Source of the DNA: an uncultured bacterium
GTDB taxonomy: Bacteria > Verrucomicrobiota > Verrucomicrobiia > Limisphaerales > UBA8199
DNA length: 64,000 bases
Direction: 5' to 3'
NCBI GenBank assembly: GCA_963749495.1
Contig: CAVVMW010000014.1
Span: 448,001-512,000 of the forward strand
Below, one piece after another: positions 15,968 to 62,389 of this stretch (positions are counted from its first letter, which is position 1; every line of letters begins with the position of its first letter). The notes under the pieces were generated by a model, which did no database searches, was not told the DNA's origin, and saw nothing but the letters and a program-made list of their open reading frames with translations. Made by a program: the position numbers and the translations under genes.

Positions 15968-18900
15968 TCAGATTACGTCGAGTTCCCTGGCAGTGAACTT
16001 TCCGTATCTCAAGGCCAGTGTCGGCAGCACGAGCAGGTTCAGCACGGTGGAGGTCAGCAGTCCCCCGAGAATCACAATCGCCATCGGCCCTTCGATTTCG
16101 CGCCCCGCCTCACCCGCGCCGATGGCCAGGGGGAGCAACCCGAGCGCGGTGACGAGCGCGGTCATGAGGATGGGCAGCAACCGTTCGGAAGCGCCGCGAA
16201 TGGCGGCCTCGAGCCCCCACGTCAGGCCTTCCTGCTGCACCAGGTGCTCGAAATGCGAGATCATCATGATCGAGTTGCGGGTGGTGATGCCAAAGAGCGT
16301 GACGAAGCCGACCAGCGAGCCCAGCGAAAGCGAGCCGCCGGTCGCAAATACCGCCAGCACGCCTCCAATCAGGGCGAAGGGCATGTTGACAAGGACCAGC
16401 AGCAGGTTGCGCGGGGTGCGGAACACAATGCTGAGCAGCAAAACAATGCCCACCCCGGCAACGGCCGAGTGCAACAGCAACTCGCGCCTGGCCGAGGCTT
16501 GTGCCAGCCCGGAGCCGCCAAAAGTCGGATACACGCCGGGAGGAAACGAAACCTTGGCCGCTATCTGCTTTTTCATTTCCGCCACGAAGGACGCCATATC
16601 GCGTCCGGCAACGTTGCAGGTCACCTGTTGCCGGCGTTGCGCGCCATCATGGGCAATCAGGTAACGTCCGGTCGTAGGATAAATCTCGGCCAACTCGCGC
16701 AACGGCATCCGCTGCCCCTGGGAGTTGCGCAACAGCAACTCGCCAACTTGCTCCGGCGCCTTCCGGCTCGCTTCATCCAAAATCACGGTCACATCGAATA
16801 CCCGATTGCCGTCGTAGATTTGCGCAACCTCGGTGCCCTGACACGCGGTTTGAATTGCTTCCAGGACATCCACTGGCAGGAACCCAAACTGAGTCAATCG
16901 TTCGGGGCGCAACCGCATGACCATCTGTGGCGAACCGGGCTGCGACTCGACTTGCACATCCGCCGCGCCGCTGATCGTGGCAACCACCTGGCGCACCTCT
17001 CCGGCCTTTTGATCGAGCACATCCAGGTCGTCTCCGAAAATATTGACCGCCACCTGCGCAGTGGCGCCCGAAAGGGTCTCCTCGATGCGCTCAGCCAAAA
17101 AGGGCAGCACCCGGAAGGTCAAACCAGGAAACCTCTCCAGTGCTTGGCGGATTTCGCCAGCGACCCCTTCGGCCTCCTCACCGCTCAAAGGCTTCAAATC
17201 CACGTCCAGCTCGCTGTAATGCGTGCCCCAGGTGTCTTCGCCATTCTCCGCCCGGCCCGCTTGCTGCGAGACGGAACGGATGTGCGGATTTTTCAGCAGT
17301 TCCTCCGTGACCTGCCGGCCCAGGCGCAACGATGCCTCCAGCGATGTCCCAGGCAGAGCGGCCATGTGGATAATGAAATGGCCTTCGCGAAACTCGGGCA
17401 GGAATTCGCCCCCAAAGAACGGCAGCGTGGCCGCCGCCGCCAGGATCATCACCAGAGCCACGCCGATGACAGTGCGCGGCCGTCCGCTCAAAGTCCCCAG
17501 CCAGCGCCGATGGCGTTCTTTCATCCAGCGGACGTGCCGAGGCTTCTTCATGGGGGCTGGTCCGCGAGAGCATCCCCAGGCACAGCGCCGGGGTGAGAGT
17601 CAGGGCCACGGCCAGAGAGGCCAAAATCGCGAGAATGAACGCGGTCGCCAGGGGCGTGAACAGCTTTCCCTGAATGCCGGTCATGGTCAGGATTGGAAAA
17701 AACACCAGCGCAACGATGAATGTCGCATAGACCACGGCGCTGCGGACTTCCAGCGACGCTTCCAAGACCACTTGAAAAAGCGGACGCGGCTGAGCCCGGG
17801 CCAGGTTCTCCCGGATACGCCGCAGAATGTTCTCCACGTTGATAATCGCGTCATCCACCACCACACCGATGGCGATGGCAAAGCCACCCAGCGTGAGGGT
17901 GTTCAGCGAAACCCCGCAGCGATCGAGCACAATGACCGCCGCCAGCAACGAGAGCGGAATTGAGCTGAAGGAAATGAACGCGGTCCGCCAGTCCAGCAGA
18001 AAAAAGAGCAACACGGCCGCCACCAGGATGCCGCCGATCATCAGCGACTCGCCCACATTCCGAATCGAGGCCTCGATGAAGTTCGCCTGCCGAAACAGCC
18101 GCGGATGCACAGTGATTCTCTCGGAAACGAAAGCCGGCGCCATCTCCCCCAGCGCGCCCTCCACCGCCCGCGTCACCTCGATCGTATTCGCGCCATATTG
18201 GCTGTACACCTCGAGCACCACGCCGGGCTCGCCCAGGATCAACGCATCACCAAATTTCGGCTCCGGCCCCTCGGCGACCTTTGCCACGTCCTTCAAACGC
18301 ACGCTCGCGCCGTCATGGTGGGCCAGCACCACTTGGCCGAGTTGTTCCGCCGTGAGGGATTGTCCCTCCGTCCGCAGAATGATTCGCTGGTTGGCGTTGT
18401 CCATGAACCCCGCCCCGCGCACGGCGGTGGACTGCCGCGCCGCCGCCAGCACGTCTTCTAAAGCAAGGCCATGCTCCATCAGCAGGTTCGGGTTTGCTTG
18501 GACCTGAAGCTGCCGCACCTCGCCGCCGAAGACCTCCACTTTGGCGACCCCCGGCACTGCCAAAAGTCGCGGTCGCACCGTCCAATCCGCGAAGGCGCGC
18601 AGTTCCATCGCTGTGCGGTTGGTCGAAGTCAGTCCAAGGTTCAGCACCTTGCTCGTCGAAGAAATCAGCGGCCCCATTTTCGGGGCCTTAACGCGTTGCG
18701 GCAGTGAGCCCGCCACTTGGGTCAAACGCTCACTCACCATCTGGCGGACGCGGTAAATATCGGCGCGGTCCCTGAACACGGCCGTGATGGCCGAGAGCCC
18801 TTGAATTGATTCGGAACGAATCGCCACCAGGTTGGGCGCGCCGTTGATGCTGTGCTCGATCGGGCGCGTCACCAGCGCTTCCACTTCCTCGGGCGATAAT

Positions 18901-27089: not shown

Positions 27090-27120
27090 AACTCACTACC
27101 GTTGCGAACAATATCGTTTC

Positions 27121-27187
27121 GGTAGGAGTCGTCAGCCCAAGGGCGGTTTGCCCCGAACCCGTTCGGGGGCAGGCAAACTCCATTGCC
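27121..27187 (-). ncRNA. Fluoride (crcB) riboswitch, internal copy
   Basis: GGCAATGGAGTTTGCC...AAACCGCCC-TT-GGGCTGACGACTCCTACC; matches the crcB consensus, with pseudoknot GGAGU/ACUCC. Confidence 0.9.
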
Positions 27188-27223
27188 TTTGACACACTAT
27201 CACCCGTTAGCGGCGGACAGGAA

Positions 27224-30243: not shown

Positions 30244-30273
30244 AACTCCCACCTCGCCACATCCTGTGGCGCT

Positions 30274-30349
30274 GGTAGGAGTCATCAGCACTGAAACCGT
30301 TCAGGCGGTTTTCCCCGAAGCCCTTGAGGGGAAGGCAAACTCCATTGCC
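30274..30349 (-). ncRNA. Fluoride (crcB) riboswitch, leader of the antiporter operon
   Basis: GGCAATGGAGTTTGCC...AAACCGCC...GCTGATGACTCCTACC; a putative TTGCCA-17 bp-CAGAAT promoter lies just upstream. Confidence 0.92.
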
Positions 30350-30442
30350 ACAGTAATTCTGGCCCGCAATGCCCACGCTGGCAACTAAAATCGTGCCGGC
30401 CTGGTAATCGGTCAGTGAAGGCGGGAACGGAGTCCCCTGCGA

Positions 30443-32432: not shown

Positions 32433-32462
32433 AACTCCCACCTCGCCACATCCTGTGGCGCT

Positions 32463-32538
32463 GGTAGGAGTCATCAGCACTGAAACCGTTCAGGCGGTTT
32501 TCCCCGAAGCCCTTGAGGGGAAGGCAAACTCCATTGCC
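32463..32538 (-). ncRNA. Fluoride riboswitch, third (duplicated) copy
   Basis: Reads identical by eye to 30274-30349. Confidence 0.88.
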
Positions 32539-32644
32539 GCAGTAATCTTCGCGCCGAATGCCCGCGCTGGCAACTAAAATTGTGCTGGCGTGTGCGCATG
32601 GGGCGCATTCGCGAGTGCTTGGTGCTAAGGTTGGCCGCGCGACC

Positions 32645-42009: not shown

Positions 42010-43313
42010 TGAAGGTCTAATGGTGGATCGCTTTGCCAGCTATAAGTTTTTGGCCGTGGCGCTCCTGTTGGCTTTTTGCTGGGCGCATGTGCGGCGGGAT
42101 TTTCTGATGTTCCGTCCGGGGGCCGATGCGGCGGGACAGGGCTGGGCCGATCAGTGGATCGAGGGTATTGGGCAATTATATCGGCTCAATGAGGCGCGGC
42201 TCGAAAGGGGCCGGGATTTGAAGGCCCCGGCACTTCCCGCCTCGTTTGTGCGGATGGACCTGGAGCGGATGAAGAGGCCCGCATATGCCCAAAGCCAACA
42301 GGCCCTGGTCCAGCAGGTGGCGAGCCTGGCTCAGGCCCGGGATGCGCAACTGGCCCAAGCGGGGCTGCCGTCCCCGCGCCGGAAGATTCTGGAAAGTCTG
42401 CTTGCAGCCCATAAGGCTGCCAGTCCAGCCGGTGAAAGTCCGGCGATGGTAAATGACGATAAGCCATCCAGTCATAACCGACGTGGGTATTCGGGGTGAC
42501 CCGGCCCACGCAAGCCCGGTTGTAAAAGCCCTGGCCGAAGCGGGGCAAGCAGCACCTCCAGGCCGCAGCATTAAGCGAACGTTGCAGCTTCGTTACACAG
42601 CCCACGTGTTTCGGAATCGTGGGGGCTTGTGGTTGCCGAGCCAATGCAGATATGGCGAAGGCAGCACCAACGACCAAGGAATCGTCGAGCGCAGTCGTTG
42701 GAACCACCGGAGTACGGGCGACGGCATGGGGTGGAAGGACTGGCAGAGTAAATTGGGGACCCTCTGCGGCTGGCGGGCTGGTCCCGCAGCCTGGCGGAAT
42801 AATGCATAAGCCGCTGGGTGGCCAACAGAGGCGCAGATGTGGCCATAGTAAGCGACGAGCCGACCGGACAGCACAACCGGTTGGGGAGCCAAGGGCCACT
42901 GGACCCGCGGTCGTGGTCAGAAGTTCTCGGTGCCGCTTGGACGCAAGTCCGACTACGGAACAAACGCCGGGGACGGAGATACCGACAGTGACGGCCTATA
43001 AGCGGGCGATGACACGCCCGCGAAGGTGGCCGTGGCGTCAGGCGGGTTTGAAGCCGGTACTGGGGAAACCCGCCGTACGGAATTTTAGAGGGGGCAGAGG
43101 AAACGAAGTGGATGGCCTGATGACCGTTTGCCACGATGCCCGAAAGGGCCGACACACTGGAAGTCATTGGCCTAATCATGTTCGCGCCTCTGCCCTACTC
43201 GATGGGAACATTGGGCCGGGTTGACGCTGTTTTTGGAGCATCCGGGGATTCCGTTGGACAACAACGGGGCGGAACGGGCCGGGCGGCCCGCGGCGGTGGG
43301 GCGCAAGAACTAC
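42010..43313 (+). mobile_element. IS66-family TnpC fragment interrupted by a group II intron
   Basis: LMVDRFASY...CWAHVRRDF; after the intron EHWAGLTLF...LDNNGAERAGRPAAVGRKNY. Confidence 0.85.
42402..43203 (+). ncRNA. ORF-less group II intron, copy 1 (802 nt)
   Basis: Domain V AGCCGGTACTGGGGAAACCCGCCGTACGG; domain VI ends CCCTACTCGAT; removing it restores the IS66 reading frame. Confidence 0.88.
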
Positions 43314-44100
43314 TCCTGCCGCTGGGCCTGCTTTTCTTCGTACTCCTCCTGCTGCGCCGCCGCCATCTCTTTGGCCCGCTCCTCAATAACCTGCCGAGCT
43401 TGCTTCAACGCCGCCACCCGCTTTTCCCGCCGCGCCAACTCGGCCGGAATATCCAGAGTCTCCTCGGCCTCCTTTGCGTCGGCTTGCTCGGCCCGCCCCA
43501 GCAACTCCTTCACTTCCAATTCCAACTGCTCGATCATCTCTCCAGCCCGCTGGTAACTCACGGCGGCATGCTTGCTGGCATTGGCCTGAATTTTGGTCCC
43601 GTCCACACTCACGGCTCCCACTTTGCTCAAGTGCAACTCCTGCGCCAGTTGCAGCACGCTCACAAAGGCCGCCCGCAACGCAGCCCCATTGACCACCCGG
43701 AACTCGCAGATCGAAGAATGATCCGGATGGAGATTGGCGCACAGATACCGCACGGCCACGTCGTTGTAGGTGGCGGCTTCGATCGTCCGGGAGCCAAACC
43801 GGCCGGTGGCGTAACAGCAAATCAGCAAAGCCAGCATCATCGTCGGCGGGTATTGCTCACTGCCAGTGCCACGGTCGTTGACGTGGAAGTGGGCGGTCGG
43901 GATCTGCTCCACCGCATCCACGATGAAATGAACGATATGGTCCTCGGGCACCCACTCGCGCAGATCGCAAGGCAGAAACATCGGCGTCTGCCGGTCCAAG
44001 TTCACAAGACGTGCAGCCATGGTGATCCGATCCCCTCCGGCCCGCATTTGTTCAATTTATTTCAAAATATTTTCGCTCCCCTAAGTCCGACAGGCTGCTA
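43310..44100 (-). mobile_element. IS1182-family transposase, 5' part (CDS from 44020) with left end
   Basis: DRQTPMFLPCDLREWVPEDH, YPPTMML, PDHSSI, VDGTKIQANASKH; end motif GCAGCCTGTCGGACTTAGG. Confidence 0.82.
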
Positions 44101-60824: not shown

Positions 60825-60945
60825 AAGCCCTTACATTGTGCATTTTCGACTGGCAGCACGGGCGGGGCAGCCACAATGGGACCATGCCGCGCGAACTGCG
60901 CATTCAGTTTCCGGGTGCCGTGTACCATCTGATGAGTCGTGGGGG
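60825..60945 (+). mobile_element. Left end and 5' stub of a Y1/RAYT element
   Basis: Same end as about 55850; MPRELRIQFPGAVYHLMSRG. Confidence 0.7.
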
Positions 60946-61166
60946 TCGGGTGCCGGACAAAAAAGTAACCTCCGTTGAAGAGACCAAGGCAGGCGTTGTT
61001 TCTTCCCTTCCGGGATTGTATCTATGCGGATGCAACCGCAATGAAATGGGGCTGCCCCAAGGCTGGCCAGCCCCCCCGGATCGCTCAGCGGCTTTGTTTT
61101 CCGCGTATTCCGTCCACCCTCCGTAGCAGAGCTACTGCGGAGGACGGGCGTATTCCGCGGTTGCCC

Positions 61167-61310
61167 TCAGGTGCCATGGCCGTATCGGCCCCGCTCCGCC
61201 ACGATGCGCTCAATTTGGACTTTGGGATAATGGCCAAAGTTGACCAACAGCCCGAGCTTGAACCGGGTCGCCTTGAGGTGGTTTTGCACCTGCGCCCGAT
61301 GCTCGTCCCG
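61167..61310 (-). pseudogene. GxxExxY-family protein C-terminal fragment
   Basis: DEHRAQVQNHLKATRFKLGLLVNFG..PKVQIERI. Confidence 0.7.
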
Positions 61311-61324
61311 CAGAAGAATGAACC

Positions 61325-62123
61325 ATCGAGTAGAGCAGAGGCGCGAACATGATTAGGCCAATGACTTCCAGTGTATCGGCCCTTTCGGGCATCGTGGCAA
61401 ACGGTCATCAAGCCATCCACTTCGTTTCCTCTGCCCCCTCTAAAATTCCGTACGGTGGGTTTTCCCCAGTACCGGCTTCAAACCCGCCTGACGCCACGGC
61501 CACCTTCGCGGGCGTGCTACCGCCCGCTTATAGGCCGTCACTGTCGGTATCTCCGTCCCCGGCGTTTGTTCCGTAGTCGGACTTGCGTCCAAGCGGCACC
61601 GAGAACCTCTGACCACGACCGCGGGTCCAGTGGCCCTTGGCTCCCCAACCGGTTATGCTGTCCGGTCGGCTCGTCGCTTACTATGGCCACATGTGCGCCT
61701 CTGTTGGCCACCCAGCGGCTTATGCATTATTCCGCCAGGCTGCGGGGCCAACCCGCCAGCCCCAGAGGGTCCCCAATTTACTCTGCCAGTCCTTTCACCC
61801 CATGCCGCCGCCCGTACTCCGGTGACTCCAACGATTGCCTGCGACGATGCCTTCATCGTTGGTTGTGCCTTCGCCGTTTTCGCACCGGTTCGGCAGTCAC
61901 AAATCCCACGAATCCGGAACCCGTGGGTAGCGTAACGAAGCTGCAGCTTTCGCTTTATGCTACGGCCTGGAGGTGTTGCTCGCCCTGCTCCGGCCAGGAC
62001 TTTTACGACCGAGCTTTCGCGGGTCGGGTCGCCCCTTCCCGTGTCGGTTATCACTGTATGGTTCATCGTCAGTTACCATCGCCGGACTTCCACCGGCTGG
62101 ACTGGCAGCCTTATGGGCTGCGA
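61325..62123 (-). ncRNA. ORF-less group II intron, copy 2 (799 nt)
   Basis: Colinear with 42402-43203; near-identical domains V/VI; 5' end TCGCAGCCC, 3' end CTACTCGAT. Confidence 0.87.
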
Positions 62124-62389
62124 GCGGAATACGCGGAATACGCGGAAATGAACAGGTCTAATGGTTACTAGTTTGTCCCGTACCCGTGGGGATCGGCGCG
62201 ATGACATTCAGAAAAACCCGCCATTGCCGCTTCGCGGGCGGCCTAAATCCACCCCATCGATAGCCGGCCCAAGCGTAAAACTCCGCATTGTCCGAACAGT
62301 CCGCGCTGTCCGTGGACAGGAGCGGTCGAGGCGGCGCATAGTGGCGTCCATGAGAAACGCAACTGTTCAGGTGGCTACACAACAAGTGC

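Follow-up and report, generated by a model that had tools for sequence, protein, structure and literature searches.

A family of probable non-autonomous group II introns with varying guide loops in a Verrucomicrobiota genome

Some group II introns home to structured or repeated DNA, those of class IIC after terminators. In Thermosynechococcus elongatus, 17 TeI3 introns without an open reading frame (ORF) derive from one deletion, fall into families by exon-binding site (EBS), and are mobilised by the intron-encoded proteins (IEPs) of sister introns, according to the portion of that report available to us (Mohr, Ghanem and Lambowitz 2010, PMC2882425). For EcKTE56.groEL, an E. coli IIB1 intron, the accessible part of an experimental study describes spacer-free tandems, formed as a further copy inserts at the 5' junction of a resident copy whose 5' exon is intact (Gomes et al. 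2025, PMC12584367). HYERs, as outlined in PMC11754743, are ORF-less bacterial group II introns of class IIC, 0.4-0.6 kb long, that use a short guide for their targets. Here we describe a 799-nt element (copy 2) and its 802-nt relative (copy 1) in a 64,000-nt stretch of contig CAVVMW010000014.1 (hereafter the window) from an uncultured bacterium of the Verrucomicrobiota. The contig is C14 of a genome of 11.37 Mb in 31 contigs that is 88% complete (G000). The closest relatives of the window intron lie in assemblies labelled Verrucomicrobia or Verrucomicrobiae.

Copy 2 is very probably a non-autonomous (ORF-less) group II intron and a member of a recently amplified family. In each lineage, the 7 nt preceding the intron are complementary to the 7-nt EBS1 loop; beyond this stretch the flanks are unrelated, or they are part of a repeat whose units mostly stand empty. 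The Rfam model group-II-D1D4-4 (RF02003, cut-off 49 bits) matches copy 2 at 61955-62099 (minus strand, 66.4 bits) and copy 1 at 42426-42573 (plus strand, 63.2 bits). The two copies share 91.2% identity in intron positions 1-80, 83.0% in 81-400, and 97.2% in 401-799, and they diverge across all of distal domain I, beyond EBS1 alone. At filled sites the sequence is ...TATTCCGC[intron]GGTTCATTC; their empty paralogues have ...GTATTCCGCGGTTCATTC or ...TATTCCGCGGTTCATTC. Given that the first and last bases of the intron (T and T) differ from the adjoining exon bases (G and C), these boundaries are exact. The 3' flank of copy 2 matches Pfam PF13366 (E 1.6e-8) at profile positions 81-117 of 117; since it holds just the last 51 codons of a PDDEXK_3 gene, no host gene depends on removal of the intron. 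Copy 1 is inserted in sense orientation after AGTCTGC within an IS66-family transposase gene, with the frame continuous across the junction, and Pfam PF03050 matches both of its flanks collinearly (profile 130-189 upstream, 238-273 downstream). A 245-aa ORF on the opposite strand (43310-44047, minus) immediately follows copy 1, where the frame of the transposase gene degenerates, and may be another insertion sequence within the IS66 element.

The guide of copy 2, GCGAAAA, is displayed in a terminal loop on a hairpin of two helices (13 and 14), both of which carry compensatory changes. It is present in 17/17 copy-2-type copies that retain the hairpin. Pairing of these copies with their 5' flanks extends to all seven positions in three (TTTTCGC), six in five, five in seven, and two in two; both of the latter adjoin another intron copy. 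For a test across lineages, seven independent EBS1 variants from G000 and four other genomes were compared with the flanks of their own and of the other introns (Table 1). Cognate pairing averages 6.57 of 7 positions, against 4.24 over the 42 non-cognate combinations, and only one of 5040 permutations, the true assignment, reaches the observed total. A possible further contact involves the first base of the 3' exon, which is G in 15 of the 16 copy-2-type copies whose 3' end is intact. Immediately 5' of EBS1, these lineages have a U (61884 in copy 2), and family 2b and L167, whose 3' exon begins with C, have a G; this base may pair with the first 3'-exon base, a lead that comes from two clades only. 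A preliminary description of the window had already paired the GCGAAA loop (61883->61878, minus strand) with the exon end TTCCGC (62129->62124) at 5 of 6 positions, which we confirm. Its remarks that the two copies are nearly identical in their 3' halves, having diverged in the 5' region, and that both insert at GC/GG (the slash marks the insertion point here and below) agree with the identities given above and with both sites. The same text named two outcomes that would speak against its reading, a loop outside the EBS position and a lack of covariation in other copies; the consensus fold puts GCGAAAA in the distal domain-I terminal loop, where EBS1 is expected, and copies and relatives covary with their flanks. 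Its proposal of a mini-intron family that retargets by EBS change is likewise supported, at the level of sequence, by the seven covarying variants.

The fold was derived from an alignment (A2) of nine diverse sequences: copy 1, copy 2, the full-length relatives L088, L060 and L037 from other genomes, L167, and three family-2b copies. RNAalifold returned a consensus of 160 pairs, 76 of them with compensatory changes, compared with 43.2 +/- 3.5 in shuffled alignments and 11-22 when partners were slid. Paired cells amounted to 94.3%, against 82.4% and 31-44%, respectively, and 0/500 shuffles reach the real alignment on any of five measures. Six domains are predicted: D1 (to about position 356), D2, D3, D4, a 36-nt D5-like hairpin, and D6. 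A canonical D5 is a hairpin of about 34 nt with an AGC triad, a 2-nt bulge, and a GNRA loop; the D5-like hairpin here deviates from it by an A opposite the G of the triad and by one extra G. In D6 of group II introns, the bulged branch-point A lies 7-8 nt from the 3' splice site and the 3' end is AY; here the A at 61331 bulges out between pairs 745-855 and 746-853, 7 nt from the end, and the terminus is AU. The 86-nt apical insertion of D6 has helices of its own and is absent from 5/5 ORF-bearing introns examined. It is nearly as constant as D5 across the nine sequences (47.7% invariant columns, versus 55.6% for D5 and 13.8% for D4), and between copy 2 and family 2b its identity is 77.9%, compared with 75.0% for D5, 48.4% for D1, and 38.3% for D4. 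ORFs of 137-266 aa within the introns, rich in Arg, Gly, and Pro, were rejected as coding; their frame and length differ between copies, and none has a Pfam match at E<=0.1.

The phylum also has ORF-bearing introns that match the same Rfam clan (RF02005/RF02003). Those compared here (L212-L214, and one at C6:1222797-1224750 of G000) resemble the window family in domain-I motifs, in the basal stem of D6, and in the 3' end CUACUCKAY, and the G000 intron shares the mismatch in the middle of the D5 triad. They differ in encoding a reverse transcriptase (RT)/maturase of 447-543 aa, in starting with GUGCG, in matching the D5/D6 model RF00029, and in having a short D6. Because clan, domain-I motifs, and 3' end are common to both, the element is best seen as an ORF-less derivative of this kind of intron.

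The GCGAAAA lineage inserts after (U)UUYCGC and before G, its cognate site being UUUUCGC. Copy 2 occupies a site of the form (GTATTCCGC)n/GGTT, in a near-cognate TATTCCGC unit. Two statements of the preliminary description concern this target, namely that the motif recurs near 61100-61162 and that the GCGAAAA variant homes into a dispersed repeat. Both held up: an unoccupied GCGTATTCCGC/GGTT lies at 61150-61163 (plus strand), and a regular-expression search of the genome returned 97 arrays of two or three 9-nt units (TTCCGCGTA). Among array pairs less than 2.5 kb apart, 19 are convergent (73-1399 nt, most 73-203) and 17 divergent (most 10-37 nt). Given these inverted pairs, the repeat is dispersed and largely palindromic. 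It resembles REP/REPIN-like elements, and the genome has 24 matches to Y1_Tnp (IS200/RAYT-type). Most units are empty, 142 GCGTATTCCGCG units being unoccupied and 6 occupied. Units matching EBS1 perfectly (TATTTCGC) are occupied in four cases and unoccupied in three, compared with 6 and 142 for the one-mismatch TATTCCGC units (Fisher p = 2.9e-4). Five further insertions lie in unrelated sequences that also have GCG about 9 nt upstream of ...TTYCGC. Copies in different array units, together with these five unrelated sites, point to insertion rather than hitch-hiking.

Repeats also serve as targets in other genomes. The target of L088 is (GTTCTTTGC)n/GGTTGATTCC, with a second, empty copy 200 nt downstream, and that of L167 is the unit ATCCTGTTC in the 3' arm of an inverted repeat; in both cases, a short-period repeat has a unit matching the intron's own EBS1. 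The intron lineage appears to track short-period repeats across species. In G000, tandem pairs with exactly one 9-nt unit between them occur on contigs C18, C10 (B-C), and C22 (Y-Z), and other tandem pairs have no spacer (C10 A-B) or one of 3-6 nt (C22 X-Y). The 9-nt spacing arises because the target itself repeats every 9 nt, which allows insertions into successive units. Tandem neighbours differ at 4-8 positions and dispersed copies at 2-10; since these differences are alike, the neighbours are not fresh duplications of each other. The spacer-free pair recalls the head-to-tail tandems of EcKTE56.groEL; there, as far as the available text of that study goes, entry involves a wobble between EBS3(U) and the first G of the resident intron, whereas the resident here begins with U (PMC12584367). 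Tandems here also differ from those described for that intron in being mostly 9-nt-spaced, from a 9-nt repeat target.

By BLAST, the genome holds 19 copies of the GCGAAAA variant, and copy 1 comes on top at 91% identity. Thirteen are full-length and 98.6-100% identical to copy 2, two more in an array at a contig end are 93-96% identical, and four are partial (positions 1-686 twice, 1-530, and 646-799). The high identity of the 13 full-length copies suggests that the family was recently amplified. One partial copy (C23:16122-16651, ending at position 530) has a Y1_Tnp-type gene (16751-17086) within 100 nt downstream, and its end may mark insertion of an insertion sequence into the intron. A second, more distant family in the same genome (GUGCAG...CUCGAC, about 816 nt) shares only the last 150 nt with the first, at about 78% identity; its EBS1 is ATAGGAA, and it is sited after TTCCTAT. 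A short form of this family, about 557 nt and represented by at least four copies, is without most of domain I, including the EBS1 hairpin, and is found at the same kind of site with a common upstream flank of about 50 nt.

Similarity among the lineages is mosaic. Copy 2 and L037 are 93% identical in A2 columns 80-160 and 78-79% in D2-D4, and copy 1 matches copy 2 at 97% from D2 onward only. This pattern suggests recombination or template switching between intron lineages, and retargeting may proceed by recombined domain-I segments rather than by point changes. Matches to the whole element were found in 8/41 relatives' genomes, G000 counted, and matches to the domain-I half in 3/45 genomes of the taxonomic family at E<=1e-10. 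RF02003 matched 10/151 genomes sampled from the phylum, three of them above cut-off. So patchy a distribution is consistent with a mobile element. An 18-nt D6 motif scanned across the collection hit 113 stretches, of which only 13 have real similarity by BLAST; the others were rejected as chance matches. One relative's locus (L042, G002:C40, positions 1-750) holds a lone D6 module with the insertion, without D5, about 270 nt downstream of an IS200/RAYT-like gene, and an Acido-Lenti-1 RNA motif (RF01687, 37.1 bits) lies between module and gene.

We propose the following course of events. Once excised, the intron RNA would enter DNA by reverse splicing at a site complementary to EBS1 and perhaps to the U next to it, and the inserted RNA would then be copied into DNA by an RT supplied in trans. 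A target motif recurring every 9 nt in dispersed, often palindromic arrays would give the family about 150 near-cognate sites to find. Successive units could each take a copy, yielding tandems 9 nt apart, and a second copy entering the 5' junction of a resident one would yield a spacer-free tandem. Copy 1, with a different domain-I segment (EBS1 GCAGATA), would for that reason have reached a different site, the IS66 transposase gene. The principle of retargeting by EBS change is not new, because it was established for TeI3/TeI4, as the consulted part of that study describes (PMC2882425). TeI3 is alike in having many related ORF-less copies per genome, EBS families that match their own flanks, and insertion sites that for the most part avoid intact genes or fall within other mobile elements (PMC2882425, in the portion available). 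It differs in that RT-encoding TeI4 sisters with the same ribozyme have been shown to mobilise it and ORF remnants remain, according to the same sections (PMC2882425). The window family has a U at its 5' end, an atypical D5, and the 86-nt D6 insertion, and no related RT-bearing copy or ORF remnant of it was found.

Several observations weigh against a mobile group II intron. Copy 2 itself pairs with its IBS1 (the intron-binding site), ATTCCGC, at only 5/7 positions, and at least 64 GCGNNTTTCGCG sites stand unoccupied; because of the latter, EBS1 pairing looks necessary and is not sufficient. A search for EBS2, the second exon-binding site of IIA/IIB-type introns, in which all domain-I 6-nt windows were compared with exon positions -8 to -24 and four regions were given a longest-helix test, found none that stands out, the best candidate region (A2 columns 224-238) having cognate helices of mean 4.7 nt versus 3.9 for non-cognate ones. 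The 5' base of group II introns is near-universally G, and their 5' terminus is GUGYG. The copy-2 family begins instead with UCGCA and copy 1 with UUGCA; a 5' U is shared by copy 1, the copy-2 family, L088, L060, and the fragment L039, in at least four genomes, whereas L037, L167, L043, and family 2 have a 5' G (GUGCA in L037, L167, and family 2). RF00029 matches the ORF-bearing introns of the phylum but has no match in the window copies, even at E<=10, and none in 16 related loci. The family escapes the standard D5/D6 model and is visible only through the domain-I model. Contigs from RNA libraries, which may contain DNA, are 88-99% alike to much of copy 2, and the likeness ends at 61321-61324 and 62121-62126. 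No contig among those of four runs joins 61324 to 62124, so that neither splicing nor an empty allele is seen.

Other observations of this kind concern the source of the RT. No copy contains an RT or maturase, which autonomous mobile group II elements encode in domain IV. The genome has six GIIM and six RVT_1 matches, including three intact intron ORFs (C4:522k, C6:668k, and C6:1223k), none of them in a family member. When the family was compared by BLAST with the four IEP-bearing introns of the genome, nothing fell below E = 7e-4 and only a weak D5 alignment appeared; at the protein level, the nearest IEP (C6:1223k) has only 37% identity with that of a D1D4-6-type relative. Among five relatives carrying family members or fragments, two (G003 and G023) have GIIM matches, in unrelated introns, and the 20 IEP loci of these two genomes show neither similarity to the family nor a D6-insert motif. 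In the draft or metagenome-type assemblies G001, G002, and G042, no GIIM match was found; RVT_1 is likewise missing from the incomplete assemblies G001 and G042 and gives one weak match only in G002, a genome with no fewer than 12 copy ends. Given that the assemblies are incomplete (88% for G000), the absence of an RT-bearing master is not proven.

These gaps are what one would expect of dead relics, amplified together with a cognate RT-encoding master since lost, in which the U-initiated, D5-atypical copies neither splice nor move any longer. Failure to find the cognate IEP in the genome and its relatives, the U 5' end, the failure of D5 against RF00029, and the partial copies all fit such a history, as does the location of the window copy in a gene fragment, where nothing selects for its splicing. 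We nevertheless consider it unlikely: with 13 copies 98.6-100% identical, any loss would be very recent; the U-initiated form occupies different sites in at least four genomes (G000, G027 with L039, and those of L088 and L060), each with a matching EBS1; helices, D5, and D6 insertion are conserved by compensatory change; and in a genome 88% complete, the master copy may be unassembled. The missing master could instead mean that the RNA acts without a cognate IEP, by way of a heterologous RT, host repair after RNA-only reverse splicing, or HYER-like guide-directed DNA cutting, the D6 insertion replacing a maturase. The insertion is indeed conserved like D5 between families that share only 38-48% identity in D1, D2, and D4, it is absent in ORF-bearing relatives, and G001, G002, and G042 all carry family members despite the missing matches to GIIM and, in G001 and G042, to RVT_1. 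Group II ribozymes are also documented to reverse-splice and to hydrolyse DNA without protein, in the part of the source available (PMC11754743). Repeats and mobile elements, however, often fail to assemble in draft or metagenome-type assemblies, and G000 encodes three intact group II RTs that could act in trans, which leaves action without a cognate IEP quite improbable in our judgement. A lineage independent of a cognate IEP, in which the D6 insertion has taken over maturase-type functions such as positioning D6 and stabilising the core, seems to us rather improbable. If it were true, a U-initiated ribozyme would be multiplying where no group II RT is detectable, via a heterologous RT or host repair.

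Passive spread with the dispersed repeat, through duplication or recombination of repeat plus intron, would account for six copies with the same 5' and 3' repeat flanks. The C10 and C22 arrays also share a truncation point and downstream flank, and at least that block was therefore duplicated. As a general explanation in place of site-specific insertion, it is very improbable, given that the repeat units are mostly empty (142 versus 6), that copies lie in different units, that five unrelated flanks still end in TTYCGC, and that the different EBS1 sequences of relatives match different flanks. That the element is no intron at all, rather another structured repeat, such as a miniature inverted-repeat transposable element or an unrelated non-coding RNA with a chance match to an Rfam intron model, is scarcely credible: the RF00029 miss and the lack of a GUGYG end would suit it, against which stand six domains, a D5-like hairpin, a bulged A, an AY end, EBS1-IBS1 covariation, and a domain I continuous with that of ORF-bearing relatives.

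A non-autonomous group II intron guided by EBS1 also invites comparison with the IIC-like elements. Like the HYERs as PMC11754743 describes them, it is ORF-less and recognises its target through a short guide, and it differs in length (0.8 kb) and in its large domain I. Its size, compared with 0.4-0.6 kb, argues against HYER membership. A preference for palindromic or repeated intergenic motifs over genes is class IIC-like, and in several cases here the 3' arm of an inverted repeat serves as the target. Unlike in class IIC, recognition here is by 7-nt EBS1 pairing, and a stem-loop requirement is not indicated because, within its inverted pair, the window copy occupies the 5' arm. A search of the full-text literature on ORF-less introns, Verrucomicrobia, proliferation, tandems, and HYERs, made partly by title and abstract and covering few subscription journals, found no description of the family. 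Its eight EBS1 variants offer a natural series of guide/target pairs, and its U-initiated members a natural G1-to-U intron variant that is apparently still spreading. The role of the conserved RNA add-on in D6 could be relevant to how introns cease to depend on their own protein, and the target illustrates a short tandem repeat acting as a landing pad that yields tandem intron arrays.

Table 1. Positions of the intron copies, their parts and flanks, and EBS1 variants with their 5' flanks. Positions without a contig name are those of the window.
Feature	Position	Strand	Description	Basis
Copy 2	61325..62123	-	799-nt probable ORF-less group II intron, 5' UCGCAG ... CUCGAU 3'	Rfam; filled versus empty sites; six-domain fold
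Copy 2, 5' exon	62124..62148	-	9-nt-unit array TTTCCGCG TATTCCGCG TATTCCGC; last 7 nt ATTCCGC = IBS1	
Copy 2, 3' exon	61170..61324	-	Begins GGTTCATTC; codes C-terminal 51 aa of PD-(D/E)XK (PDDEXK_3) protein only	Pfam
Copy 2, EBS1	61877..61883 (read 61883->61877)	-	GCGAAAA in 9-nt terminal loop G-U-GCGAAAA	A2 columns 283-291; hairpin helices 13 and 14
Copy 2, domain V-like hairpin	61444..61479	-	AGC triad, 2-nt CC bulge, GAAAA loop	Helix 24; aligned to canonical D5 of ORF-bearing introns
Copy 2, domain VI	61328..61440	-	Bulged A at 61331, 7 nt from 3' end; 86-nt apical insertion 61342-61427	Helices 25-28
Inverted partner array	61100..61163	+	Unoccupied target GCGTATTCCGC/GGTT at 61150-61163	
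Copy 1	42402..43203	+	802-nt probable intron, 5' UUGCAG; EBS1 GCAGATA at 42646-42652	Rfam; alignment to copy 2
Second family, ~816-nt member	C21:194509-195324 (G000)	-		
Second family, ~816-nt member	C10:282552-283369 (G000)	-		
Second family, ~816-nt member	C26:21916-22732 (G000)	+		
Second family, short form	C10:59470-60025	+		
Second family, short form	C18:146352-146907	+		
Copy 1, EBS1 pair			EBS1 GCAGATA, 5' flank AGTCTGC	6/7
L088, EBS1 pair			EBS1 GCAAAGA, 5' flank TCTTTGC	7/7
L060, EBS1 pair			EBS1 GCTAATT, 5' flank GATTAGC	7/7, one wobble
L167, EBS1 pair			EBS1 ACAGGAT, 5' flank ATCCTGT	7/7
Family 2b, EBS1 pair			EBS1 ATAGGAA, 5' flank TTCCTAT	7/7
L037, EBS1 pair			EBS1 GAGAAGA, 5' flank ACTTCAT	5/7

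Two other repeated pieces lie near the target array in the window. A 41-nt GC-rich hairpin (61109-61149) splits the left 9-mer array, with GTATTCCG on both sides; with 95-100% identity it is found again in more than 10 other places, and it is a separate, dispersed miniature repeat. At 60877-60950 (plus strand), a short ORF starts MPRELRIQFPGAVYHLMSRG..., and a 125-nt piece here recurs at more than 12 loci with 90-97% identity. This ORF start resembles the N-terminus of an IS200/RAYT-type transposase. Elsewhere in the window, three fluoride riboswitch aptamers (RF01734) fall within 5.5 kb on the minus strand, at 27116-27196, 30269-30358, and 32458-32547 (51.1, 44.8, and 43.7 bits, respectively), which suggests repeated fluoride-responsive transcription units.

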